Shown: positions 1,165-41,652 of the stretch, in pieces
How positions within the stretch are numbered: the first letter of the stretch is position 1
Layout: each line of letters opens with the position of its first letter
NCBI GenBank assembly: GCA_037445715.1
Contig: JBBIJZ010000005.1
Coordinates: 15,645 to 71,166 of the forward strand
Length of the DNA stretch: 55,522 nucleotides
From: Verrucomicrobiales bacterium
GTDB lineage: Bacteria > Verrucomicrobiota > Verrucomicrobiia > Limisphaerales > J093
Direction: 5' to 3'
Program-made: the position numbers and the translations under genes
The notes under the pieces: model-generated
Databases searched by the model: none
Seen by the model: the letters and a program-made list of their open reading frames with translations, nothing else
What the model was told of the DNA's origin: nothing

Positions 1165-1190
1165 GCCGGGCCGCGCGGTGTGACTCTGCC

Positions 1191-1925
1191 ATGAAGCGTT
1201 TCGACGCCATCATCTTCGACATGGACGGCGTGATCGTGGACAGCGAGCCGTGGCACGAGCGCGCCTTCCGCGAGATTTTCCGCGAGCTGGGCTACGGCGA
1301 AAACCACGGCATCCACTTCCCGGACTACATCGGCCGCTCGGATCGCGCCCTGTGGCTGGATTTCATCGAAAAACACCGGCCGCCGCAGCCGCTGGAGGAA
1401 CTCCTGGCCGCCAAGCAAAACCGGCTCATCGAAATCCTCCGCCGCGAGCAACCCATCTTCCCCGGCCTGCCGGAACTGCTGGAACGACTGGCGCCGCATT
1501 ACCGGCTGGCCGTGGCCTCGGGCTCGAACCACCCGGTCATTGACGAGGTGCTGGCCATGAAGCAGCTCCGCCGGTTTTTCTCCGCCGTGGCCAGCACGCA
1601 GGACGTGGGCAAGACCAAGCCCGCGCCGGACGTGTTCCTGCACGCCGCGCGCCTGCTGGGCGTGCCGCCGATGCGGTGTTGCGTCATCGAAGACTCGGCG
1701 GCCGGTGTGACCGCGGCACGGGCGGCGGGCATGGACGTCATCGCCATCACCCACTCCCTCCCGCGCGAGCAACTGGCCGGCGCCACGCATGTCGTGGACA
1801 CGTTCGCGGAGATCGAGCGGCTGCTGGTCCCGTCCCCGGCAAAGACGCCCCCCGAGCCGGCCGGGGCGGCGTGCACGGCCCCGGCCGAGACATCCGCGAA
1901 GCCGGGCCGGCACCCCTTGATGTGA
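1191..1925 (+). CDS. HAD family phosphatase (beta-PGM/CbbY-like)
   Basis: IIFDMDGVIVDSE motif I, KPAPDVF motif III, VIEDS..GV motif IV. Confidence 0.9.
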   Translation: MKRFDAIIFDMDGVIVDSEPWHERAFREIFRELGYGENHGIHFPDYIGRSDRALWLDFIEKHRPPQPLEELLAAKQNRLIEILRREQPIFPGLPELLERLAPHYRLAVASGSNHPVIDEVLAMKQLRRFFSAVASTQDVGKTKPAPDVFLHAARLLGVPPMRCCVIEDSAAGVTAARAAGMDVIAITHSLPREQLAGATHVVDTFAEIERLLVPSPAKTPPEPAGAACTAPAETSAKPGRHPLM

Positions 1926-28927: not shown

Positions 28928-31519
28928 TCAGCCCGGGGCGACCGGGAGTTGGGGGCTGCGCTGGCGAACGGGCGCCGGCACGCTGGCGATGACCGTGGTG
29001 CCCTCACCGGGCTGGGACTCGACGGTGAGCGTGCCGCCGATCAGGAGCATCCGTTCCTCCATGCCCAGCAGACCGAGGTAACTGCGGATGTCGCCCTGGC
29101 GGCGCAAGGCCGCGGCGTTGAAGCCCTGGCCGTCATCCTCGACGATGAGCGAGACGGTTTGCTCGTGGCGCTGGAGCAGCACGTTGACCGTGCGGGCGCG
29201 GGCGTGGAAGTACACGTTGGCCAGCGCTTCCTGGGCCACGCGGTACAGCGCGGTTTCCACCCGGAGGGGTAACCGCTCGATCTCCATGTTCTGGGTCCAA
29301 AAGCGCACGTTCAGGCGGCTGCTCTGGGCGAAGTCGTTGCAGTAGCGTTGCAGCGCGACCTGCAGGCCGAAGTCGTCCAGCGCGGGCGGGCGCAGTTCCC
29401 AGGCCTTGCGGTGCATGGCCTGCACCAGGTGGGAGGCCAGTCCTTGCAGGCGCTGGACCTCGCCTTGGAGGGTTGCCGGGTCCCGGAAGTGATGATGCAG
29501 GAGTGCCAGCCCGATGTTCAGGGCGTTCAACTCCTGGCCGAGCTGGTCGTGCAACTCGCGCGCGAGCGCGGCGCGCTCGGTTTCCTGCAGGTCCACCAGC
29601 CGACTCAGGGCCTGGAGGTGGGCGGCCTCGGCCTGTTTGCGCTGGGCCACTTCCCGGCGCAACGCCTCGTTGATGCGGCGCAGCTCGGCGGTGCGTTCGG
29701 CCACGCGTTGCTCGAGCTCGGCATGGGCGGCTTGCAGGGCCGCCTCGGCCGTCTTTTGCCGCGTGATGTCCCGGACGTAGGTCATCAGACGCAGCGGCCG
29801 GCCGGCGGCGTCGCGCACCACGGTGGAATCCAGGTGCACCCACACCACCTGGCCGGTGCGGGTGAGGTAGCGCTTTTCCACTTCCACGCTGGGCACCTCG
29901 CCCCGCAGCAACCGGGCGAGCTGGGCCAGGCTCCGGGCCCGGTCCTCCGGGTGGGTCAGTTCCGCGAAGGTCCGCTGCAGGAGCTCATCCGCGGAGTACC
30001 CCAACAGTTCGCAAAAACTCGCGGGCACGCGCTGGAGGCGCCCGTCCAGGCCCACGTGCAACACCATCGTCCGGGCAAAGGCCTCGGCCCGTTCCCGCTG
30101 CCTTTCGCTCTCGCGCAGGGCTTGCTCGGCGCGCCGCAGCGCGGTGATGTCCGTCATGGCCACGAACACGCCCGTCACTTCGCCGGCCTCGTTGCGGCGG
30201 GGATGGAAGTTGGCCAGCCAGCAGCGGGGTTCCTCACCCGGGCCCGGAATGGCGAACTCGAAATCCAGGATCGGCTCGCCGCCGGCCAGCACGCGGCGCA
30301 GGGCATCGCCCATCGCCAGGGCCAGACCGGCGGAAACGGCGACCAGTGTTTTGCCGGTGTGGTCTTCGGCAGGGCGCTGCGTGAGACGGGTCAAAAAGGC
30401 GTTGACCCGCTCGAAGCGCAGTTCCCGGTCCAGCACGCACAACCCGACGGGCGCGTGCCGGTAAATCTGGTCCAGCTCCGCCCACTGGGCGCGGGCGCGG
30501 GCCTCGCTGGCCTGGAGCGCGGCTTCCGCCTGCCGGCGGGCGGCGTTGTCCGCGGCCAACTGCTGGGTGCGCTGGACCACGCGCTGCTCCAGTTCCAGGT
30601 TGGCCAGTTCCAATTCACGGCGGGCGCGGTGGCGTTGTGCCACCAGGATGGCGGTCGTCAGCCCCATCAGGCTGGTGGTGGCCAGGTAGGCGGTGCCGGC
30701 GAGCAGTTCCAAACCGCGGGGGACCTGCCCGAACAGGCCGGATTGGGTGGAAGCGGCGGGCAGGACCAGTGCCGACAGGGCGGTGGTCAACAGGGCCGTT
30801 TCGCGCGGGCTGAAGCCAAGCGCAATCACGATTACCACTGCGGCCGGCAGGCAGGCGAGCAACAACTGGCCCCGGAGAAATTCTTGCGGGCCGCTGAAGG
30901 CACAAGCCGCCGCTCCCAGGGCGGCGACAAACAACAGGGCCAGTCTGCGAAGCCGGGGCAGATTCCAGCGTTGCGGCGGCTGGGTGACCAGGAGCACCAC
31001 CAGCGGTGTCAGGGTCAACAGGCTCAGGACATGGGCCAGCCAGCCATCCAGCCGGCTCCCCGGACTCGCCCCCGAGCCGTCCGCCCAAAGCCAGTGGCCC
31101 GTTGCCACGGCCAGGGCCGGCACTCCGAGGCCGACCCCGAGGGTAAATCGCGCGAAGTTTTCCAAGCTGTCCAGAAACCCGGTCCCGCCACAGCATTTGC
31201 GGCTGAGCCAGGCTCCCAAACCGGCCTCGCCTGCGGCCATTGCGGCCAACAGGGCGACTTTGCCCGCGGGCAAGTTCCACAAAAGCGCGGTCACCCCCAC
31301 GCTGCCGGCCAGCGCCACGGCGCCCCGCCATCCGGCCAGCAGCCACAGCGCCACGCCGACTCCATAAACCGAGGCCAGGACGCCCGTCAGGGCCCGCTCC
31401 CCGAAAACCAAGAGTCCCATCCAGGCCGCGGCGGCCGCTACCAACAGCCCGCCCGCCAGCTGAAGGACCTGCCGGTCTTTCAGCCTGGGTTGCCCGGTGG
31501 CTGTGGCTTCGCCCGTCAT
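28928..31519 (-). CDS. Sensor histidine kinase: MASE1-like TM region, two PAS domains, HisKA_3/HATPase
   Basis: Multi-TM N-terminus; PAS (APVG..VLD; THPED); ER..LARELHD.LGQ; QEAL.N..HA; DDG.GF; GL.GM.ER; start ATG 31519 or 31588. Confidence 0.93.
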   Translation of the reverse strand: MTGEATATGQPRLKDRQVLQLAGGLLVAAAAAWMGLLVFGERALTGVLASVYGVGVALWLLAGWRGAVALAGSVGVTALLWNLPAGKVALLAAMAAGEAGLGAWLSRKCCGGTGFLDSLENFARFTLGVGLGVPALAVATGHWLWADGSGASPGSRLDGWLAHVLSLLTLTPLVVLLVTQPPQRWNLPRLRRLALLFVAALGAAACAFSGPQEFLRGQLLLACLPAAVVIVIALGFSPRETALLTTALSALVLPAASTQSGLFGQVPRGLELLAGTAYLATTSLMGLTTAILVAQRHRARRELELANLELEQRVVQRTQQLAADNAARRQAEAALQASEARARAQWAELDQIYRHAPVGLCVLDRELRFERVNAFLTRLTQRPAEDHTGKTLVAVSAGLALAMGDALRRVLAGGEPILDFEFAIPGPGEEPRCWLANFHPRRNEAGEVTGVFVAMTDITALRRAEQALRESERQRERAEAFARTMVLHVGLDGRLQRVPASFCELLGYSADELLQRTFAELTHPEDRARSLAQLARLLRGEVPSVEVEKRYLTRTGQVVWVHLDSTVVRDAAGRPLRLMTYVRDITRQKTAEAALQAAHAELEQRVAERTAELRRINEALRREVAQRKQAEAAHLQALSRLVDLQETERAALARELHDQLGQELNALNIGLALLHHHFRDPATLQGEVQRLQGLASHLVQAMHRKAWELRPPALDDFGLQVALQRYCNDFAQSSRLNVRFWTQNMEIERLPLRVETALYRVAQEALANVYFHARARTVNVLLQRHEQTVSLIVEDDGQGFNAAALRRQGDIRSYLGLLGMEERMLLIGGTLTVESQPGEGTTVIASVPAPVRQRSPQLPVAPG

Positions 31520-31635
31520 TGGCTGTTTGGCCCGTTTGGGCCTCCTACCCTCTCCATCCCGGGTTCCGCTCCTCATCCCGCCAGCCATGGCCGGACGCCG
31601 CAGGCACTCCTGCTTCCCGGAACTTACGGGTCACT

Positions 31636-31655: not shown

Positions 31656-31764
31656 CTGTAAAGCGCCGAGTTGTCCGGGCGCTCCGGGCTGCGCTCCTTT
31701 TTGCCCGGGTGAAAACCGGCGTTGGCAGCGTGCGGGCCTTTCCCTAGCATCCGCGCGCGTTTTT

Positions 31765-32961
31765 GTGGTGGAACTCCTCGAGCAAGCGCCCTTGAAGCTG
31801 GGCCAGTGGTTGGTCGCACGGGTGCCGCAAGCCTGGCAGCCCGTGGCGGGCGCCTGCCTGGGGGCCGCCCTGATCGTGGCCGTCTTTGCCGGGTTGTTTG
31901 CCCTGACCACCTGGCTCGAGCGCAAAGGGCTGGCGCGAATGCAGAATCGCCCCGGGCCCAACCGCGTCGGCCCCGCCGGCCTGCTCCAACCGGCGGCCGA
32001 CGGGTTGAAGATGCTTTTCAAGGAGGACATCCGGCCATTTGCCGCCGACCGCTGGGTGCACACGCTGGCGCCGCTGTTGAAGGTGGTGCCGGTGGTCTGC
32101 GCGCTGGCGGTGATTCCGTTCGGGCGGCACCTGGTGGCCCTCGATCTGGATGCCGGGCTGGTGTTCTTCTTCGCGATGGGTTCGGTGACGGAGGTCGCGC
32201 TGTTCATGGCCGGCTGGGGCAGCCGCAACAAGTACTCGCTGCTGGGGGCGATGCGGGCCATCGCCCAGCTCATCAGCTACGAGGTGCCGCTGGCCCTGGC
32301 GGCGCTGACGGCGGTCCTGGTCTCGGGCAGCCTGTCGCTGTCCGCGATCGTGGACAGCCAGGCCGGCGCGTACCCGGGCGGGCTGGCGCGCTGGCACGTC
32401 TTCACGCCCTGGGGCCTGGCGGGACTGGTCCTGTTTTTCACCGCCACCACCGCCAAGGCCAACCGCGCCCCCTTTGATCTGCCCGAGGGTGAGTCGGAAA
32501 TCATCGCCGGGCACCTGGTCGAGTACTCCGGGTTCAAGTACGCCCTGTTTTTTCTGGGCGAATACCTGCTGCTGTTCGGCTACAGCGCGGTGGGGATCAC
32601 CCTGTTTCTGGGCGGCTGGCGGGCGCCTTTGGTCTGGTTGGAGTGGGTGCCGAGTTACGTGTGGTTCGCGCTGAAATTGCTGGTCTGCATCGCCTGGTTC
32701 ATCTGGCTGCGCGGCACGGTCCCGCGGCTGCGCGCGGACCAGTTGATGCACTTTGCCTGGAAGTTCCTGCTGCCGCTGGGGCTGGCGGCCAACCTCGCCG
32801 CCATGCTCTGGCAGGCCACTGCCGACTGGACCTTTGCCGGGGCGACGCCGGTGCGCTGGGCGCTGGCCGGCGGGCTGGTGCTGGTGCCGTACCAAATCCT
32901 GGGACGTTCGCTGATGGGCGAAGCGGCCACGCTGCCGCGCCGCTATCGCTTTGCCGAGTAA
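31765..32961 (+). CDS. nuoH: Complex I subunit H
   Basis: ERK..ARMQNR.GPNRVG..GLLQP.ADGLK...KED; ISYEVP; NRAPFDLPEGESE; EYSG; R.RADQLM. Confidence 0.93.
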   Translation: MVELLEQAPLKLGQWLVARVPQAWQPVAGACLGAALIVAVFAGLFALTTWLERKGLARMQNRPGPNRVGPAGLLQPAADGLKMLFKEDIRPFAADRWVHTLAPLLKVVPVVCALAVIPFGRHLVALDLDAGLVFFFAMGSVTEVALFMAGWGSRNKYSLLGAMRAIAQLISYEVPLALAALTAVLVSGSLSLSAIVDSQAGAYPGGLARWHVFTPWGLAGLVLFFTATTAKANRAPFDLPEGESEIIAGHLVEYSGFKYALFFLGEYLLLFGYSAVGITLFLGGWRAPLVWLEWVPSYVWFALKLLVCIAWFIWLRGTVPRLRADQLMHFAWKFLLPLGLAANLAAMLWQATADWTFAGATPVRWALAGGLVLVPYQILGRSLMGEAATLPRRYRFAE

Positions 32962-32966
32962 CCTGC

Positions 32967-33485
32967 ATGGAAACCGCCTTCCAACTGCTGGCCGCGGGGG
33001 TGCTGGTCGCGGCGGTGGCCGCGATGAGCCTGCGCCAGCTCGTTCACTGCGCGTTGTGTCTGGTGGCGGTCTTTGCGGCCGCCGCCGGCCTGTTCCTCAC
33101 GTTGGGCGCCGAGTTTCTGGCCTTTGCCCAGGTGCTGGTGTACGTGGGCGCCATTTCGATTCTGATCGTCTTCGCCATGTTGCTGACGCGCACCCGCGCG
33201 GTGGACCCGGCGGACCTGAGCGTGCGCCCGCGCGCGCTGGGCATCATGGTGGCGGGGGCGGTCACCGGCTTGGTGGTCGCCGCCGTGCTCGCCAGCGGGG
33301 CGCTACCGGACAAGACCGCGGCCACACCGGCGGTGCCGGTGCGGGAACTGGGCCGGGAGTTGATGACGCAGCAGGTGCCGGCCCTGCTGGCGGTGGGGCT
33401 GTTGTTGACTGCGGCCCTGATCGGCGCGGTGGTGCTGGCCCTGCGCGAGCCGCCCGCCGCGACCGGAAAGGAGCCGCGCCCATGA
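32967..33485 (+). CDS. nuoJ: Complex I subunit J
   Basis: LGAEFLAFAQVLVYVGAI.ILIVFA.ML; LL.AALIGAVVLA. Confidence 0.92.
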   Translation: METAFQLLAAGVLVAAVAAMSLRQLVHCALCLVAVFAAAAGLFLTLGAEFLAFAQVLVYVGAISILIVFAMLLTRTRAVDPADLSVRPRALGIMVAGAVTGLVVAAVLASGALPDKTAATPAVPVRELGRELMTQQVPALLAVGLLLTAALIGAVVLALREPPAATGKEPRP

Positions 33486-33793
33486 GTCCGCTCGAACGCT
33501 ATTTAATTGTGGCCGCCCTGCTGTTCGGCGTCGGTCTCGCCGGTGCCCTCACCCGTCGCAACGCCATCCTGGCCCTGGCGGGCATCGAGCTGATGCTCAC
33601 GGCGGTGAATCTCAACCTCATTGCCTTCTGGCGTCACGGCGGTCACGACGCCGGCGCCGCGGGCCAGGTCTTTGTGCTCTTTGTCATCGCGGTGGCCGCG
33701 GCGGAAACCGCCGTGGGGTTGGCGCTGATCATCGCCCTGTTCCGGCACCGGCGCACAGTGCACCTGGACGAGGCCGACCAGTTGCGGGGATGA
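33482..33793 (+). CDS. nuoK: Complex I subunit K
   Basis: RRNAI, IELML.AVNLN, VAAAE.AVGLA; ATGA overlap. Confidence 0.93.
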   Translation: MSPLERYLIVAALLFGVGLAGALTRRNAILALAGIELMLTAVNLNLIAFWRHGGHDAGAAGQVFVLFVIAVAAAETAVGLALIIALFRHRRTVHLDEADQLRG

Positions 33794-35868
33794 ACGGCGT
33801 GGTGCATCAGCTCTGGCTCGTCCCTGTCCTGCCGCTGCTGGCCGCGGGAGTGCTGGCGTTGTTGCCGCGCCGGGCCCGTCGCGTCGCCGCCGGGCTGGCG
33901 ATCGGCGCGCTGGCCGTGAGCCTGGTGCTCGCTCTGGCGGCTCTGGCCGCTACTCGGGCCGCGCCGGAGCCCGAAGGCTTCCGCGCCGTGGTCAATTTCC
34001 CCTGGCTGGCCTGGGGCGAACACACCCTCATGCTGGGCTGGGTACTCGACCCCCTGGCGGCGGCGATGCTGGTAATGGTCTGCCTGGTCGGGCTGCTGAT
34101 CTTCATCTACAGCGTCGGGTACATGGCCGGGGACGAGAACTTCACCCGGTTCTTCTGTTTCCTGTCGTTGTTTGCCGGCGCGATGCTGGCCGTGGTGATG
34201 GCCAACAGTCTGTTGCTCCTGTTCATTGCCTGGGAGCTGGTGGGGTTGGCGTCGTACCTCCTGATCGGGTTTTGGTACCAAAAACCGGCCGCCGCCGCGG
34301 CCGCCAAGAAGGCCTTTCTCACCACGCGGGTGGGCGACCTGGGGCTGTTCGCCGGGATGCTCTGGCTGTACGCCGCCACGGGGACCCTGGTTTTTTACGA
34401 CGAGGGCCGCGGTTGTCTCGAGGCGTCGGCGGTCAACACCCTGGCCGGGCGCACGGTGACGGCGGGTCTGACGTTGTCGGCGGTCATCAGCCTGCTGGTC
34501 CTGCTGGGCGCGGCGGGCAAGTCCGGTCAGTTCCCGCTGCATGTGTGGTTGCCGGACGCGATGGAAGGCCCCACGCCGGTCAGCGCCCTGATCCACGCGG
34601 CGACGATGGTGGCCGCGGGCGTGTTCCTGGTGGCGCGAATGTTTCCGCTGTTTGCCGCCGTCCCGCCCGGCGCGACCGGCCCCTCGCCCGCCCTGCAGGC
34701 GGTGGCCTGGCTGGGCGCGGGGACCGCGGTGTTTGCGGCGTTGATCGCCGTGGCCCAGACCGACCTCAAGCGCATCCTGGCCTACTCGACCGTGTCGCAA
34801 CTGGGCTACATGTTCCTGGGCCTTGGGGTGGGCGGCGTGGCCGTGGGGATGTTCCACCTGCTCACGCACGCCGGCTTCAAGGCCCTGCTGTTCCTCGGTG
34901 CCGGCTCGGTCATCCACGGCTGTCACGGCGAGCAGGACATCCGCCGGTTGGGCGGTTTGTGGCGGGCGCAACCGATCACCTTTGCGACCTACGCCGTAGG
35001 AATGATGGCCCTGGCCGGCGTGCCGCTGCTCTTCTCCGGGTTCTGGAGCAAGGAGGAAATCCTCCACGGCGCGCTCGGCTGGCCGGTGTCGCGCGGGCCG
35101 TTCTGGCTGGGAGTAGCGGGCGCGCTGCTGACGGCCTTCTACATGACCCGGCAAATGGTGTTCGTGTTCTTCGGCCCGTACCGGGGCGCAGCCGCGGCGG
35201 GCCGGGACGCGGCGGCCGCGGACGGCGTCCATGAAAGCCCGCCGGTGATGACCGTCCCGCTGGTGTTGCTGGCGGTTGGCGCGGTGGTCCCGGGCTTCTT
35301 CGGCACGCCGGCCTGGCCCGCGCTGCAAGCGTATCTGGACCCGGCCCACGCCATGCACCTCGCTCCAGACCTGCGCCGTCTGTTCAGCGCAGAGGTCTTG
35401 AAGCTGATGGCGCTTTCGACGGCCGTGGTGCTGGCCGGGCTGGGCCTGGGCTGGTGGCTCTACGGGCGCCGTCCCATCACCGATCCGGCCGCGCCGGACG
35501 CGCTCGAGCTCGCGCAGCCGGGCCTGTTCCGGCTCTTGCGCGAGAAATTCCGCGTGGACGAGTTCTACGCGGCCACGGTGGTGCGCTGGCACGCCGCTTG
35601 GGCGGGTTGGGGAGACCTGTTGGACCGCTGGCTGTGGGGCGGGCTGGTGTGGCTGGTGCAAGGCCTGGCCCTGGGCCTGGCCTGGGTGAGCCGACTGGTG
35701 GACGAGTTCGCGGTCAACGGGGGGTTCGATGCGGCGTGCGCGCGGTTGGTGCGCAGTGGGCGACGCGTGGCCGGGTTGTCCACCGGGCGGCTGCCGGGGT
35801 ACTTGCGCGGCGTGGCGGCGGGAGCGCTGGCGCTGGGGCTTTTGTTGCTGTGGGGAGGTTGCCGATGA
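33790..35868 (+). CDS. nuoL: Complex I subunit L with extended lateral helix
   Basis: YSVGYM, WELVG..SYLLIGFW, GKSGQFPLHVWLPDAMEGPTPVSALIHAATMV, GFWSKE. Confidence 0.95.
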   Translation: MNGVVHQLWLVPVLPLLAAGVLALLPRRARRVAAGLAIGALAVSLVLALAALAATRAAPEPEGFRAVVNFPWLAWGEHTLMLGWVLDPLAAAMLVMVCLVGLLIFIYSVGYMAGDENFTRFFCFLSLFAGAMLAVVMANSLLLLFIAWELVGLASYLLIGFWYQKPAAAAAAKKAFLTTRVGDLGLFAGMLWLYAATGTLVFYDEGRGCLEASAVNTLAGRTVTAGLTLSAVISLLVLLGAAGKSGQFPLHVWLPDAMEGPTPVSALIHAATMVAAGVFLVARMFPLFAAVPPGATGPSPALQAVAWLGAGTAVFAALIAVAQTDLKRILAYSTVSQLGYMFLGLGVGGVAVGMFHLLTHAGFKALLFLGAGSVIHGCHGEQDIRRLGGLWRAQPITFATYAVGMMALAGVPLLFSGFWSKEEILHGALGWPVSRGPFWLGVAGALLTAFYMTRQMVFVFFGPYRGAAAAGRDAAAADGVHESPPVMTVPLVLLAVGAVVPGFFGTPAWPALQAYLDPAHAMHLAPDLRRLFSAEVLKLMALSTAVVLAGLGLGWWLYGRRPITDPAAPDALELAQPGLFRLLREKFRVDEFYAATVVRWHAAWAGWGDLLDRWLWGGLVWLVQGLALGLAWVSRLVDEFAVNGGFDAACARLVRSGRRVAGLSTGRLPGYLRGVAAGALALGLLLLWGGCR

Positions 35869-37427
35869 GGGAGCTGCCGCTGCTGAGTGCCCTGACGTTT
35901 TTGCCGCTGGCGGGCGGGCTGCTGGTGCTCGCGCTGGGGGAACGCCGCGCCGCGGTGGCGCGCCGACTGGCCCTGGCCGTGGCCGGGCTGGGCGTGGCGC
36001 TGGCGATGGGTCTGGTGGCCGCCTTCGATCCGGCGTCGGGCTCGATGCAGTTCGTCGAGAAACACCGATGGATTCCGGCCCTGGCGGTGGATTATCACCT
36101 GGGGCTGGACGGGCTGAGCCTGGTGTTGGTGGTGCTGACCACGCTGCTGGTGCCCGCGGCCATGCTGGTCCCGGGCGGGCCGCGCGAGCGGCGGGCGTTG
36201 TTCTGGGCGCTGATGCTGTTTCTGGAGGCCGGATTGCTGGGCACGTTCACGGCCCTGAACTTTTTCCACTGGTTCCTGTTCTGGGAACTGAGCCTGATCC
36301 CGGCGTTTTTCCTGATCAAACTCTGGGGCGGCCCGGAAAGCGGCCCGGCCGCCACGCAGTTCTTCCTCTACACCCTGGCGGGCAGTGCCGCCATGTTGCT
36401 GGCGTTTCTGGCCATTTTTCTGGCGGTAGGGAAATTCGACTTCCTCGAGCTGGCCGAGCTGGGGCGGGCGGACCGGCTCACGGCGCACTTCCACGTCAGT
36501 CTGGGCTGGTACGCGCTGCCCGCGGAGACGCTCACGCGCCTGGTGTTCGCGGGGGTGTTTCTGGGGCTGGCGGTGAAGGTGCCGGTGATGCCGTTTCACA
36601 CCTGGCTGCCCGCGGCGTATGCCGAGGCGCCCACCGGGGTGACGATGTTGCTGACCGGGGCGATGTCGAAGATGGGGGTGTACGGCTTCGCGCGGCTGCT
36701 GGTGCCGATTTTTCCCGAGCAGGTCCGCGCCCTGCAAACACCGCTGCTGGTCCTGGTGGTGTTCACGATTCTGTTCTCGGCCGCCACGGCCTTCGCGCAA
36801 CGCGACCTGAAGCGGATGCTGGCCTATTCCTCGATCAACCACCTGGGCTACGCCCTGCTGGGACTCGTGGCGGCCGCCGGCGCCGGCGCCGCTGCCGACG
36901 CCCGCGCGGCCCAGGAACAAGCGGCCGCCCTCAACGGTGTGCTCTTCCAACTGTTCGCCCACGGCGTGACCGCCGCCACGCTCTTCGCCGCGGTGGGCTG
37001 GCTGGAGCAACGCAGCGGCGGGCGGCGCGGGCTGGATGATTTCGGCGGGTTGCGGCGCGTGGCGCCGGTCTTCACCGGGCTGACGGGCATCGCGCTGTTC
37101 GCCTCGCTGGGATTGCCCGGGCTGTGCGGGTTTGTGGGCGAGTTTCTGATTTTCAAGGGCGCCTTTGCGCTGGCGCCCGCGGCGGCGGCCGCGGCGTTGC
37201 CGGGGTTGCTGCTGACCGCGGTGTTCTTGCTGACGCTGATGCAGCGGGTGTTTCACGGACCGCTCGAACCGCGCTGGGCCGGGCTGGCGGACCTGACCTG
37301 GCGCGAGCGGCTGGGGCTCGCGCCGGCCCTGGCGGTGATCTTCGGGCTGGGGATTTACCCGCAAGGGTTGCTGCACTTCACCAACGCCACGGTGGTGGCG
37401 CTGGCGGAGGCCTGGCGGCCGTTTTGA
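35865..37427 (+). CDS. nuoM: Complex I subunit M (copy 1)
   Basis: FWELSLIP, AVKVP..PFHTWLP.AY, SKMGVYG, GFVGEF; ATGA overlap. Confidence 0.92.
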   Translation: MRELPLLSALTFLPLAGGLLVLALGERRAAVARRLALAVAGLGVALAMGLVAAFDPASGSMQFVEKHRWIPALAVDYHLGLDGLSLVLVVLTTLLVPAAMLVPGGPRERRALFWALMLFLEAGLLGTFTALNFFHWFLFWELSLIPAFFLIKLWGGPESGPAATQFFLYTLAGSAAMLLAFLAIFLAVGKFDFLELAELGRADRLTAHFHVSLGWYALPAETLTRLVFAGVFLGLAVKVPVMPFHTWLPAAYAEAPTGVTMLLTGAMSKMGVYGFARLLVPIFPEQVRALQTPLLVLVVFTILFSAATAFAQRDLKRMLAYSSINHLGYALLGLVAAAGAGAAADARAAQEQAAALNGVLFQLFAHGVTAATLFAAVGWLEQRSGGRRGLDDFGGLRRVAPVFTGLTGIALFASLGLPGLCGFVGEFLIFKGAFALAPAAAAAALPGLLLTAVFLLTLMQRVFHGPLEPRWAGLADLTWRERLGLAPALAVIFGLGIYPQGLLHFTNATVVALAEAWRPF

Positions 37428-37429
37428 GC

Positions 37430-38926
37430 ATGTTGCCCTGGACGATCTATCTGAGTTTCGCGGGCGCGCTGGTGTTGCTGGCGTGGCCGCGGCGTTGGGC
37501 CGGGGCGGCGCACGGCGTGGCGCTGGTGTTTGCCCTGGCCGGCGCAGTCTGCGGCATGCTGGGCGGACTGGCCTACCGGCCGGGCGGAGAATTGCTGACC
37601 CTGGTGCGGGTGCCGTGGGTGCCGGCGCTGGGCCTGGAGTATTACCTGGCCGTGGACGGTCTGAATCTGCCGCTGGTGTGGCTGACCGGCCTGGCGGCGG
37701 TGGCCGGCATTTTGTTTTCGTGGAACGTGACCGAGGCGCCGCGCGCTTTTTTTGCCCTGTACCTGGCCCTGATCGGCGGGGTGTACGGGGTGTTCCTGAG
37801 CTTCGACCTGTTCCTGCTCTTTTTCTTCTTCGAAGTGGCGATCATCCCGAAGTACTTCCTGATCGCCCGCTGGGGTTCGACCCGCCGCGAGTACGGCGCG
37901 ATGAAGCTGGCGTTGTACTCGTTTGCCGGCAGCGCGCTGGTGTTTCTGGGCGTGCTGGCGCTGTACGTCAACACGCCGGGTGGCAGCGCACCGCCGTTGG
38001 ACCTGGCGGCGCTGGCGCGGCGCGATTTCGACCCGGGGCTTCAACGCTGGGTGTTTCCGCTGTTCTTCGTGGGTTTCGGCGTGCTGGCCGGGTTGTGGCC
38101 GCTGCACACCTGGGCGCCGACCGGCCACGTGGCCGCGCCCACGGCGGCCTCGATGCTGCTGGCCGGTGTGGTGATGAAGCTGGGCGCCTACGGCGCGCTG
38201 CGCGCGGGCGTGGCGTTGTTCCCGGTCGGGCTGGCGGCGTGGCAGGGCGTGTTCCTCGCGCTGGCGGTCACGGGCATCGTTTACGGCGGGCTGGTCGCGC
38301 TGGTGCAGAAGGACTTCAAGTTCGTCATCGGTTACTCGAGCGTCAGTCACATGGGTTTCGTGCTGCTGGGGTTGGTGACGTTGAATCCGTTGGGCCTGGG
38401 CGGCGCGGTGCTGCAGATGGTCTCGCACGGCCTGATTGCGGGTCTGCTCTTCGCGGTGGTGGGCCGGATGGTGTATGACCGGGCTCACACCCGGGAACTG
38501 GACGAACTGAGCGGCCTGCGGCTGGCGCGGCGCCTGCCGTTCGCGGCAGCCACCTTCACTCTGGCCGGCATGGCCTCGATGGGGTTGCCCGGGTTCAGCG
38601 GCTTCGTGGCTGAGTTGTCGGTGCTGGTGGGCGCGTGGGAGGCGCGGCCCACCGCGGCGGTGATCACCGGGGCGGGCATCGTGATCGGCGCGGCCTACAT
38701 CTGGCGCGCGTTGCAAAAGGCCTTCGCCAGCGAACCGCTCCCGGACGCCGCCGGTTCGGCCGCCCTCGCGGCGCTGGAGCCCATCACCCTACCGGAGCGA
38801 CTGGGCGCAGGGTTGTTGCTGGCCGCGACGGTGGCGCTGGGCCTGTTTCCCGGGCTGGTGATGGATTACATCCTGCCCAGCGCGCGCGTCCTATTGGAGA
38901 CCCTGCACACCGGAGGTGCGCGGTGA
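37430..38926 (+). CDS. nuoM: Complex I subunit M (copy 2, atypical charged residues)
   Basis: FEVAIIPKY, GVLAGLWPLHTWAP, MKLGAYG, YSSVSHMG, GFVAEL. Confidence 0.9.
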   Translation: MLPWTIYLSFAGALVLLAWPRRWAGAAHGVALVFALAGAVCGMLGGLAYRPGGELLTLVRVPWVPALGLEYYLAVDGLNLPLVWLTGLAAVAGILFSWNVTEAPRAFFALYLALIGGVYGVFLSFDLFLLFFFFEVAIIPKYFLIARWGSTRREYGAMKLALYSFAGSALVFLGVLALYVNTPGGSAPPLDLAALARRDFDPGLQRWVFPLFFVGFGVLAGLWPLHTWAPTGHVAAPTAASMLLAGVVMKLGAYGALRAGVALFPVGLAAWQGVFLALAVTGIVYGGLVALVQKDFKFVIGYSSVSHMGFVLLGLVTLNPLGLGGAVLQMVSHGLIAGLLFAVVGRMVYDRAHTRELDELSGLRLARRLPFAAATFTLAGMASMGLPGFSGFVAELSVLVGAWEARPTAAVITGAGIVIGAAYIWRALQKAFASEPLPDAAGSAALAALEPITLPERLGAGLLLAATVALGLFPGLVMDYILPSARVLLETLHTGGAR

Positions 38927-40455
38927 ACACGACCCAGTTTCTCGAGCTGCTCAAACTTGCCGGTCCGGAAGTGCTGGTCACGTTGACGGCGCTGGCGGCT
39001 TTGCTGGTGGACCTGATGGTGATGCACGGGGCGCCGCTCCGCGCCCGCCGCGGCATTGCCACGCTGTTGACGGTGGTGGGCTGCGTGGCGGCCGGATTTT
39101 ACCTGGTCCATGTGCCGGTCCGGGCGGCCGGGGTGGGCGGCTTGTTCGCCGTGGACGCACTGACGCAACTGGTCAAGCTGGGGCTGGTGGGGCTGACCGC
39201 GTTGACCGCGGCGCTCTCCTTCGAGGCGGACTACACCGACCACGTGGGTGAACACTTTGCCCTGCTGCTGCTGGCCACGGTGGGGCTGATGGTCATGGCC
39301 AGTGCGGCCGACCTGGTGATGGTGTTCCTGGGGTTGGAACTGGCCGGCCTGTCCCTGTACCCGCTGGTGGCGCTGAACAAGGCCAGTCCGCGCGCGACGG
39401 AAGCGGCGCTGAAATACTTCTTCTTCGGGGCGCTGGCGGCGGCGTTCACGCTCTTCGGCTTCAGTTTCCTGTACGGTCTGACCGGCACGACCCATCTGGC
39501 CGGCATCGCGACCGCGCTGCGCGACCGGGGACCGGACCCGCTGCTGGCCGTGGCGGTGGGGATGTCGCTGGTGGGTTTCGGGTTCAAGGTGGCGGCGGTG
39601 CCGTTTCATCTGTGGGCCCCGGACGCCTACCAGGGCGCGCCGACGCCGGTGGCGGCGCTGATTGCTTCCGGCGCGAAACTGGCGGGCTTTTTCCTGCTGG
39701 GCCGGTTTGTGGCGTTGTCGCTGCCGGAAGCGCCGGGGCCGAGCGCGGCCGGGGCGACAGCGGGCTGGGTGCCGGTCGTGGCCGCGCTGGCGCTGGCCTC
39801 GATGGTGGCGGGGAACCTGGCGGCGCTGGCGCAGCGTGATTTCAAGCGCCTGTTGGCCTACTCGGCCGTGGCGCACGCGGGCTACCTGCTGCTGGCGGTG
39901 CTGGCGCTGAGAACGGCCTCCGACCGGCCGGCGGCGCTGGCGGCGCTGGTTTACTACGCTTTCACCTATGCGCTGGCCGGGCTGGGGGCATTCGCGGCGG
40001 CGGCTCACCTGGAACGCCGCACCGGCCAGGCCGCGCTGGACGGCTTGATCGGTCTGGGAAGGCAGGCCCCGTGGCTGGCGGCCGGGGTGGCGGTCTTCCT
40101 GTTGTCGCTGGCAGGGCTGCCGCCGCTGGCGGGTTTTCCGGCCAAGTTTTACGTGTTTGCCGCGGCGCTCGAACCGGGCCCGGCGGCCGGGACCTCGTTT
40201 TGGTTGGTGGTGGTGGCGTTGGGGTTGAGCCCGGTGGGCTTTTACTACTACCTGCGGGTGCTCAAGCTGGCCTGGGTGGCTGCGGAGAATGCCACGCCGG
40301 CACCCGCCTCCCCGGAAGGCGACCGCGCCCCGGCCGGCCGGGCCCTCGAAACCGCGGTGGCGCTGGTGGCGGCGGCGGGGGTCGTGTGGCTGGGGGTGTT
40401 CCCGGAGTGGCTGCTGGGGCCGTTGCGGGCGGCCATCCAGCAGGCGGGTTGGTGA
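38923..40455 (+). CDS. nuoN: Complex I subunit N
   Basis: GLEL..L..Y, EAALKYF, GFKVAAVPFHLWAPDAYQGAPT, KRLLAYS..AHAGY, GF.AKF; GTGA overlap. Confidence 0.93.
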   Translation: MNTTQFLELLKLAGPEVLVTLTALAALLVDLMVMHGAPLRARRGIATLLTVVGCVAAGFYLVHVPVRAAGVGGLFAVDALTQLVKLGLVGLTALTAALSFEADYTDHVGEHFALLLLATVGLMVMASAADLVMVFLGLELAGLSLYPLVALNKASPRATEAALKYFFFGALAAAFTLFGFSFLYGLTGTTHLAGIATALRDRGPDPLLAVAVGMSLVGFGFKVAAVPFHLWAPDAYQGAPTPVAALIASGAKLAGFFLLGRFVALSLPEAPGPSAAGATAGWVPVVAALALASMVAGNLAALAQRDFKRLLAYSAVAHAGYLLLAVLALRTASDRPAALAALVYYAFTYALAGLGAFAAAAHLERRTGQAALDGLIGLGRQAPWLAAGVAVFLLSLAGLPPLAGFPAKFYVFAAALEPGPAAGTSFWLVVVALGLSPVGFYYYLRVLKLAWVAAENATPAPASPEGDRAPAGRALETAVALVAAAGVVWLGVFPEWLLGPLRAAIQQAGW

Positions 40456-40488: not shown

Positions 40489-41652
40489 CTATTTTTCGCC
40501 GCTCGGGCGGAGACTCGGGTCCTCGATGACCACGTCGTATTCCTGGCGCAGCCCTTCGGCATAGGCAGGAAGCTGTTTCTCGACCATCTGGGCCAGGAGC
40601 AGGTCGCGAATGTCGTCCTCGACCTGCTCGAAGGGCAGCTTGATGGCCGGCTTGCGCTCGCGCACCCGGGCGAGGTAGTAACCGAGGGAGGTGGCGATGG
40701 GGTTGCTGAGCTGCTCGGGGGGGAGGCTGAAAAGCGCGTCCTTCAGCTCCGGGGCCATGGGCGTGTCGGCCGTGGCGAGGTAGCGGCCCCCGGTCCGGGC
40801 CACATCCGGGTCTTCGGAAACCTCGCGGGCGACTTTTTCAAAATCCTCCCCGGCCCGCAGGCGGGCCAGGGTGTTGGTGGCGCGCGCCAGCTTGGCCTTT
40901 TGCGCCTCCTCGGACAACGGCGCGCGGGTGACCGGGTCCAGGGTGTAGAACAGAATGAGGTCGGCGGTGACCTGTTCGGGCCGGGTGAGGCGGGCGAGAT
41001 TCGAGCGCCGCATGAGGTCCAGCCGGTTGGTGGCGTCGCGGTAAAACACGGTGTCCTGGTTGCCGGCGGCTTCGAGCTTGCGGATGGTCTCGCGCAGCTC
41101 GTGCGTGTGGAGGTCGTCGCCGGTCTCGTAAAAGGCCCGCACGTCCGCATCGGCCACGGTCAGCTTGGACTTGAGTTCGCGTTCGATGACCTTTTCGACC
41201 AGCGCCTGTTCGTGGGCGCGGGCCTCGAAGACTTCCGGCTTGAGGCCGGTGGCGATCAACTGACGGCGGTAGGACTCCTCGGAGGGCGCCTTCTTCTTGG
41301 TGTCGGCGATGAATTTTTCGGCCAGTTCGCGCGCCCGGGCTTTGTCGTCCTCGGTAGCTCGCTGGACCAGGATGCGCGTGAGGATCATGCGTTCGAGCAG
41401 GCGCGCGCGCAGGGCGGGTTCGTCCTGCCGGGCGATGGCCTGACCCTGGGTGGCCAGGGTGCCCTTGAGGGCGGTGAGGGTGTCGTCCAGCTCGGCCTGG
41501 CGGATTTCGAAGCCGCGCCCGCGGGCGATGACCGGGTTGTCGAACAGCGCGGCGCCGCGGGCGTGCGCCAGCCCGAGGGCCAGGGCCAGGACCAGGGCAA
41601 AGGGGCGGTCCGCCGGCCGCGCCCGGCGGCGGGCGAGCGAAACGGGGTGCAT
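40489..41652 (-). CDS. PpiC-type (parvulin) peptidyl-prolyl isomerase, SurA/PrsA-like
   Basis: Signal peptide; SurA-N-like helices; GEDFEKVAREVSED...GG; LFSL...QLS.PI.T.LGY; PFEQV...I. Confidence 0.85.
   Translation of the reverse strand: MHPVSLARRRARPADRPFALVLALALGLAHARGAALFDNPVIARGRGFEIRQAELDDTLTALKGTLATQGQAIARQDEPALRARLLERMILTRILVQRATEDDKARARELAEKFIADTKKKAPSEESYRRQLIATGLKPEVFEARAHEQALVEKVIERELKSKLTVADADVRAFYETGDDLHTHELRETIRKLEAAGNQDTVFYRDATNRLDLMRRSNLARLTRPEQVTADLILFYTLDPVTRAPLSEEAQKAKLARATNTLARLRAGEDFEKVAREVSEDPDVARTGGRYLATADTPMAPELKDALFSLPPEQLSNPIATSLGYYLARVRERKPAIKLPFEQVEDDIRDLLLAQMVEKQLPAYAEGLRQEYDVVIEDPSLRPSGEK

Follow-up and report, generated by a model that had tools for sequence, protein, structure and literature searches.

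Membrane-arm genes of a probable 2M-type complex I, with its operon apparently split into three units, in a Verrucomicrobiales genome

A type of respiratory complex I with two copies of the antiporter-like subunit NuoM (2M) was reportedly described by Chadwick, Hemp, Fischer and Orphan in 2018 (ISME J 12:2668), and the Green complex I of rhizobia, in which two MrpD-like subunits take the place of NuoL, is said to have been described by Degli Esposti and Martinez-Romero in 2016. In the portions of the published accounts that were available, the NuoL of 2M enzymes is given an insert of about 26 residues in helix HL, or is described as lengthened (PMC9040806; PMC6606698). The same portions report a Nitrospira 2M cluster devoid of nuoH, nuoE and nuoF (PMC6606698), a separation of nuoBCDI from the membrane-arm operon in the 2M genes of cultured Chloroflexi (PMC7117926), and a complex with duplicated nuoM in Acidobacterium capsulatum, in contiguous form (PMC11636273). 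The present analysis concerns a cluster of seven genes, nuoH-J-K-L-M1-M2-N, in a stretch of 55,522 nucleotides from a Verrucomicrobiales bacterium (GenBank assembly GCA_037445715.1, contig JBBIJZ010000005.1, positions 15,645 to 71,166 of the forward strand), which is referred to as the window. An earlier note on this DNA had proposed that the cluster encodes a membrane arm of the 2M type, with four antiporter-like subunits, and takes NuoA-D and NuoI from other loci, and this much has been borne out, the partner genes having been found on two other contigs of the assembly, C23 and C60. The cluster is very probably the membrane-arm fragment of a single 12-subunit 2M complex I whose operon has been split into three units, with nuoA-B-C-D on C23 and nuoI on C60 as its predicted dedicated partners. 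The ancestral order is read as A-B-C-D-I-H-J-K-L-M1-M2-N, with no nuoE, nuoF or nuoG, and this order appears to have been kept in relatives and in Acidobacteriaceae.

Gene identities were assigned with Pfam and NCBIfam models on the reading frames of the window (Table 1), and the models agree with the earlier note in giving seven tightly coupled genes on the plus strand. The nuoH stop codon ends at 32961 and the nuoJ ATG lies at 32967, leaving the gap of 5 nt that had been remarked upon, while the gap between M1 and M2 is 2 nt and overlaps of 4 nt are found at J/K, K/L, L/M1 and M2/N. No nuoI and none of nuoA-G was found among the Pfam and NCBIfam calls on the window genes in the neighbourhood of the cluster which, as had also been stated correctly, is bordered by a divergent kinase gene on its 5' side and a convergent peptidyl-prolyl isomerase (PPIase) gene on its 3' side and encodes no peripheral subunit locally. 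The description of nuoI as cleanly absent holds in so far as none lies between nuoH and nuoJ or nearby, but not beyond that, a nuoI being present on C60 and its ancestral place in the operon being upstream of nuoH.

The whole assembly (4.17 Mb in 188 contigs, 95.6% complete) was searched by family, and a tblastn map was used to sort the complex I genes into sets. This search for further nuoA, B, C, D and I copies and for canonical nuo genes, which the earlier note had recommended, recovered both the partner loci on C23 and C60 and a scattered canonical set. Three NuoH were found, along with one hydrogenase-type relative, as well as three NuoD and three NuoB of the complex I type, three NuoA, two NuoI over the cut-off and a third NuoI-like protein, at 83.5 bits, on C60. 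Antiporter-like genes are carried by C5, the contig of the window (four), C43 (four), C125 (three), C96 (two) and C65 (two); a genuine Mrp-like pair is located on C96, apart from the window. Three sets emerged from the map: a contiguous one on C43, the canonical one (A on C72; B, C and D on C62; H and I on C73; K, L, M and N on C125), and a remainder consisting of C23 (ABCD), C60 (I) and the window. The three membrane arms are therefore matched by exactly three A/B/D/H/I sets, and the assembly contains no additional quinone-reducing module (Q-module). None of the four NuoF-like genes in the genome lies on C5, C23 or C60. No further nuo gene stands beyond nuoA-B-C-D on C23, where a GH5 cellulase gene is found instead, and the nuoI of C60 is alone among reading frames that appear unrelated. 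Scattering is seen for the genes of the canonical complex I as well; some of their breaks may correspond to contig ends, and the canonical nuo run on C62 stops where a gene of opposite orientation follows.

Table 1. Location of the complex I genes, the NuoL insertion and the flanking features (positions are those of the window unless a contig of the assembly, G000, is named)
Feature	Location	Strand	Description
nuoH	31765..32961	+	398 aa, first of cluster; PF00146 361.5 bits; NF004741 312.1 bits, cut-off 305
nuoJ	32967..33485	+	172 aa; PF00499 98.3 bits
nuoK	33482..33793	+	103 aa; PF00420 92 bits; NF004320 103.4 bits, cut-off 57
nuoL	33790..35868	+	692 aa, lengthened form; NF005141 604.8 bits, cut-off 556
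NuoL helix HL insertion	35650..35724 (approximate)	+	about 25 residues (about 621-645), from alignment; gap placement within the helix is arbitrary
nuoM1	35865..37427	+	520 aa; TIGR01972 447.1 bits, cut-off 263.8
nuoM2	37430..38926	+	498 aa, extra antiporter-like subunit; TIGR01972 427.5 bits, cut-off 263.8
nuoN	38923..40455	+	510 aa, closing gene; TIGR01770 354.5 bits, cut-off 332.6
nuoA-B-C-D	G000:C23:11083-14051	-	four genes in a row, then a GH5 cellulase gene
nuoI	G000:C60:~1189-1755		monocistronic; 188 aa, two CxxCxxCxxxCP motifs
Promoter candidate	31722..31750	+	sigma-70-like (TTGGCA-17-TAGCAT), just 5' of nuoH; consensus match only
Histidine kinase gene	28928..31588	-	PAS/HisKA_3/HATPase_c; divergent, upstream; context only, outside the complex
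PPIase gene	40489..41652	-	SurA-like; convergent, downstream, 33 nt past the nuoN stop; context only

Across 40 related genomes, the window type of NuoH was detected in 29 (52-93% identity; at least 335 bits, against at most 251 for paralogues), and both the C60 type of NuoI and the C23 type of NuoD (at least 570 bits, against at most 348 for paralogues) occur in the same 29, the other 11 genomes having none of the three types. Ranking the 29 genomes by orthologue identity also gives similar orders for H, I and D (Spearman 0.78), a value that is descriptive only because kin are not independent. D, I and H are adjacent in 15 of the 29 (G010-14, G017, G020, G021, G023, G025-29 and G037), with a spacing of tens to a few hundred nucleotides in the contiguous operons, and all four operons covered end to end (G011, G023, G037 and G025) read A-B-C-D-I-H-J-K-L-M1-M2-N. 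Six genomes have I next to H with D on a different contig (G002, G007, G009, G015, G022 and G040), one has D next to I with H elsewhere (G035), and in four (G001, G003, G005 and G006) nuoI stands alone, flanked by at least 1.4 kb free of nuo genes on each side and with none upstream of nuoH. The arrangement is obscured by contig ends in G004 and G008 and rearranged in G038. From these layouts, the junction at which the operon broke differs between lineages. They also indicate that nuoI ancestrally preceded nuoH in the clade and was never lost from between nuoH and nuoJ; since nuoI lies upstream of nuoH in the clade, the tight H-J junction would be ancestral and no deletion scar. Further break points were observed in G040 (locus L058), where J, K and L were not found in the 1.5 kb 3' of nuoH, and in G038 (L085), where nuoI is inverted and adjoins a partial match to nuoL.

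A wider set of public loci gives a similar range of arrangements. NuoL alignment yielded 80 loci, including 13 clusters with a NuoL at least 50% identical to that of the window, from Acidobacteriaceae, Opitutaceae, Limisphaerales, Udaeobacter and other Verrucomicrobiota; L116 and L117 also reach this identity, but are short fragments and are not among the 13. All twelve genes in the order A-B-C-D-I-H-J-K-L-M1-M2-N are present in nine named loci (Acidobacteriaceae, Opitutaceae and Limisphaerales), and L114 and L115 show this order too, except for one terminal gene that was not found. L109 and L112 contain only the run from H to N, like the window, and L113 contains I followed by that run. In L108, from an uncultured Verrucomicrobiae, A-B-C-D-I is divergent and stands back to back with H-J-K-L-M1-M2-N, which suggests an inversion at the I/H junction, the same junction as the break in the window's lineage.

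Synteny in relatives and phylogeny against known 2M clades had both been put forward in the earlier note as checks: D-I-H contiguity was recovered in the 15 genomes listed above, and the C23 NuoD joins a 2M-linked clade. In the NuoD tree, the C23 protein lies inside an 18-row clade (Shimodaira-Hasegawa-like approximate likelihood ratio test, SH-aLRT, 83) that consists only of NuoD encoded by 2M clusters, in the D-I-H order or divergently (L108). Both NuoD paralogues of the same genome are outside this clade, the C62 copy grouping with canonical Verrucomicrobiota NuoD, and the 2M NuoD of Nitrospira is placed elsewhere in the tree and is not sister to the C23 protein. The Acidobacteriaceae NuoD nest among those of Verrucomicrobiota, and the NuoL identity to the window is 56-61% for Acidobacteriaceae operons (L103-L107, L111) and 50-66% for those of the window's own order (L091-L094). 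The comparable identities, together with the nested NuoD, suggest that the 2M operon was transferred between the two phyla, in either direction.

The scattered genes have the appearance of functional ones. All 12 reading frames of the window, C23 and C60 are intact, the four cysteines of the C23 NuoB that align with those of Escherichia coli NuoB (N2 ligands) are all present, both the GPxHPxxHG and the PYTDR motif are conserved in the C23 NuoD, and the C60 NuoI keeps all eight cysteines; the roles of these cofactor and quinone-site residues in NuoB, NuoD and NuoI are taken by us to be those given in the complex I literature. In comparison with G001, a genome of the same genus with the same three-way split, the ratio of nonsynonymous to synonymous substitution rates (dN/dS) ranges from 0.03 to 0.37 across the 12 genes, the orphan nuoI having 0.16, and 0.12 when compared to G008. 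All 12 genes are by this measure under purifying selection, and with all pieces so maintained, respiratory complexes of many subunits appear to withstand the dispersal of their genes in this lineage. Identities to the paralogues in the same genome are 40-50% for D, 35-44% for I and 41-43% for H, as against 66-79%, 50-76% and 49-65%, respectively, for the orthologues in contiguous operons.

Several characters of the 2M family are found together in the cluster, namely the tandem NuoM between nuoL and nuoN, the lengthened NuoL and the lack of nuoE and nuoF, and the core subunits A, B, C, D, H, I, J and K of the same lineage are all present when the window, C23 and C60 are combined. A Green complex I was considered for the window and rejected, as a true NuoL follows nuoK (NF005141, 604.8 against 556 bits) with no MrpD-like replacement. 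The window NuoL is 70 aa longer than the canonical C125 NuoL of the genome (622 aa), and in the alignment 25 of these residues make up a single insertion in the region of the lateral helix HL, whose lengthening is typical of 2M enzymes. The HL insertion, of 25-26 residues, is shared by all aligned 2M-type NuoL, including the orthologues and those of the Nitrospira loci L144 and L173, and is absent from the C125 NuoL, from the single-M clusters L122, L134 and L163 and from E. coli NuoL.

The two NuoM are old paralogues: identity between them is 35%, and that of each to its orthologue in relatives is 60-66%. With channel-residue numbers that we take to be those of the E. coli literature, M1 keeps the equivalents of NuoM E144, K234, K265 and E407, and the channel residues are also kept in the window NuoN and NuoL. 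M2 keeps the equivalents of E144, K265, H241, H248 and E407, is without an Arg at the R313 position, and has a Leu (residue 219) at the position of K234 in transmembrane helix 7 (TM7). In the 16 M1/M2 clusters compared (the window, L103-L115, L144 and L173), the TM7 lysine is absent from every M2 (16/16) and kept in every M1 (16/16), the M2 of the Verrucomicrobiota/Acidobacteriaceae clade having Leu at this position and those of Nitrospira Ile.

An assembly artefact at the nuoH boundary, a possibility raised in the earlier note, has been ruled out by the mid-contig position of the cluster on C5 (81 kb), by the layout in a related genome and by independent bridging contigs. The same-genus genome G006 has an identical order of kinase, nuoH to nuoN and PPIase on a contig of 461 kb, its kinase being 58% identical. 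The junction of kinase and nuoH is bridged by Logan contigs X1 (record 4) and X2 (record 10), and that of nuoH and nuoJ by X2 (record 10) and X3 (record 20), with no extra gene at either, the three contigs being from public runs of three different studies. A local hypervariable stretch was observed at 32894-33001, from the C-terminal end of NuoH across the spacer into the opening codons of nuoJ, where about 106 nt are exchanged for 105 unlike nt in X2 and X3, the flanks being about 97% alike. Regarding the neighbours, no kinase was found next to nuoH in G001, the closest relative with the locus examined. The PPIase gene is kept 3' of nuoN in the same-genus genomes G006 and G009 and not beyond the genus (the neighbour in L103 has 28% identity), and it was rejected as a general accessory gene of the 2M operon, being conserved within the genus only. 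One promoter-like site was observed upstream of nuoH, against 0.3 expected from shuffled sequences, which is weak evidence consistent with nuoH being at the head of its own transcription unit.

Three other readings of the cluster have been weighed. The first is the interchangeable arm of the earlier note, taken here as an arm with no Q-module of its own that would pair with the NuoA-D and NuoI of the canonical or C43 enzyme, or dock onto a different redox module, so as to alter the H+/e- ratio on demand. Its own promoter-like site and the divergent sensor kinase would make separate regulation of the arm possible, and two other Q-modules are indeed encoded in the genome; the reading is nonetheless very improbable, given that a dedicated nuoABCD and nuoI from the same clade exist and accompany the arm in 29/29 of the relatives that have it and are absent in the remaining 11/40, that these genes are contiguous with the arm in 15 relatives, that there are as many Q-modules as arms, that identity to the paralogous subunits of the other Q-modules is only 35-50%, and that the kinase is not conserved as a neighbour even in G001. 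A separate nuoABCD cluster and nuoI of the same clade, which the note itself had named as the finding that would speak against an interchangeable module, have been found on C23 and C60, and with them this proposal fails. Docking to a different redox module is likewise unsupported, as dedicated Q-module genes exist and their counts match those of the arms.

It is still harder to see in NuoH-J-K-L-M-M-N a redox-independent, Mrp-like cation/proton antiporter. Such a function would agree with the homology of NuoL, NuoM and NuoN to MrpA and MrpD, which appear among their lower-ranked matches, and with the lack of any redox subunit in the window. The cluster nevertheless includes NuoH (PF00146), the subunit that makes up the quinone channel, and NuoJ, while MrpB, E, F and G were not seen in it; its four large subunits match Nuo models best and above their cut-offs, Mrp models fall far short of theirs (for example NF009288, 312 bits with a cut-off of 1104), the genuine Mrp-like pair of the genome is the one on C96, and the arm is strictly coupled to Q-module genes across relatives. 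This reading is considered extremely improbable. There is, on the other hand, some reason to ask if the pieces might be a decaying remnant, unassembled after the break-up and heading for loss, as the breaks in the operon fall at several junctions within the order and 11 of the 40 relatives are without the whole complex. The 12 intact reading frames, the cofactor motifs that have been kept and the dN/dS of 0.03-0.37 against the equally split G001 make decay highly unlikely, and so does the persistence of the split state over several species of the genus.

The explanation preferred here, a single 2M complex I encoded at three loci, can be given a mechanism by analogy with the complex I and 2M literature. 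The products of the three loci would assemble into one L-shaped enzyme, in which NuoB, NuoC, NuoD and NuoI, with clusters N2, N6a and N6b, would pass electrons on to quinone where NuoD, NuoH and NuoB meet. A conformational and electrostatic wave would then travel along N-M-M-L, held by the longer HL spanning the four antiporter-like subunits, with a yield of up to 5 H+ per 2 e-, or else the reverse reaction would be driven by the proton-motive force, as is proposed for Nitrospira in the available part of one account (PMC6606698). The changed stoichiometry put forward in the earlier note is the published hypothesis for the 2M family and adds no new inference.

A number of observations count against this explanation or some part of it. 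The HL insertion is also carried by the single-M cluster L138, so that the insertion alone is not diagnostic of the 2M type, and the lengthened helix of the window NuoL is itself deduced from alignment only. The NuoD clade has moderate support, obtained with a quick search. No RNA run is listed as containing the locus, which speaks neither for nor against its expression, and the co-expression and co-assembly of the products of three loci are inferred from their genes. Lysine 234 of NuoM is essential in E. coli, and an M2 with no TM7 lysine means that 5 H+ per 2 e- is not assured. If this lysine is essential here too, it is conceivable, although unlikely, that M2 is no canonical pump and works as a relay or spacer or as a channel with different gating, in which case the 5 H+ per 2 e- assumed for 2M enzymes would need revision, as would the changed stoichiometry of the earlier note. 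On the same unlikely view, the separately promoted units of this genus might let the arm be regulated apart from the Q-module. The operon set is also without an NADH-oxidising N-module, and electrons may be donated (or, in the reverse direction, accepted) by a ferredoxin-type carrier or by a NuoEFG in common with the canonical enzyme. In two loci, a two-subunit 2-oxoacid:ferredoxin oxidoreductase adjoins nuoA of the 2M operon (L103, 942-3929; L105, 785-3745), in divergent orientation in one and co-directional in the other; both are from closely related Acidobacteriaceae metagenome-assembled genomes. This is a weak hint that ferredoxin may feed the 2M enzyme in these organisms. The oxidoreductase was not seen beside the 2M genes of the other checked loci nor beside the pieces in this genome, and as a general feature it was rejected, being limited to the two closely related loci.

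A second unusual complex I is encoded on C43 (C43:6188-17742; L020, 2189-13743, minus strand), where nuoA-B-(C)D-H-I-(J)-K are followed by two MrpD-like genes (NF006236, 794.7 bits; NF009310, 740.2 bits) and then by nuoM and nuoN. The second MrpD-like gene, that matching NF009310, has a NuoL-like C-terminus. The cluster has a Green-like layout as in PMC9040806, with two MrpD-like genes in place of NuoL, and the genome thus encodes canonical, Green-like and 2M complex I together. With three complex I types in one genome, a cultured relative would be suited to asking what role the extra antiporter-like subunits play. The order also provides a natural series of operon break-up, with intact, two-piece and three-piece states in which the cuts fall at D|I, I|H or D-I|H. 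It is clear from this case that a nuo cluster comprising only the membrane arm is no evidence for a modular or orphan pump before the genome has been searched as a whole.

When compared to the 2M enzymes in print, as far as they are described in the available portions of the sources, the complex encoded in this genome is alike in its tandem NuoM, its lengthened NuoL, its lack of nuoE and nuoF and its coexistence with canonical copies (PMC6606698; PMC9040806; PMC7117926; PMC11636273). As in the Chloroflexi 2M genes of PMC7117926, the genes for the Q-module are found away from those for the membrane arm with its two nuoM, but in the part of that account at hand B, a fused CD and I are together, whereas here I is separate, C and D are unfused and nuoA accompanies B-C-D. 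With Nitrospira moscoviensis CI_1, a 2M complex assigned to 'clade 3' in the accessible text of PMC6606698, the cluster shares two NuoM, a lengthened NuoL and the absence of a core gene. In that text, nuoH is absent and an enlarged nuoG homologue is reported, whereas the window cluster begins with nuoH and is without A-D and I. In the Nitrospira metagenome-assembled loci L144 and L173 the order is A-B-C-D-I-J-K-L-M1-M2-N, with I after D and no nuoH between I and J, in agreement with that text, and their proteins are 31-59% identical to those of the window. The Green complex I, as presented in the available section of PMC9040806, has four antiporter-like subunits in common with the window, which differs in having a true NuoL and two NuoM. 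Both the 2M type and separated Q-module genes appear already in print within the portions cited (PMC6606698; PMC7117926). Unlike the published 2M enzymes, the one predicted here is cut into ABCD, I and HJKLMMN and belongs to a Verrucomicrobiota/Acidobacteriaceae clade with the D-I-H order, and only this degree of fragmentation, with its stepwise emergence within one genus, is regarded as particular to it.

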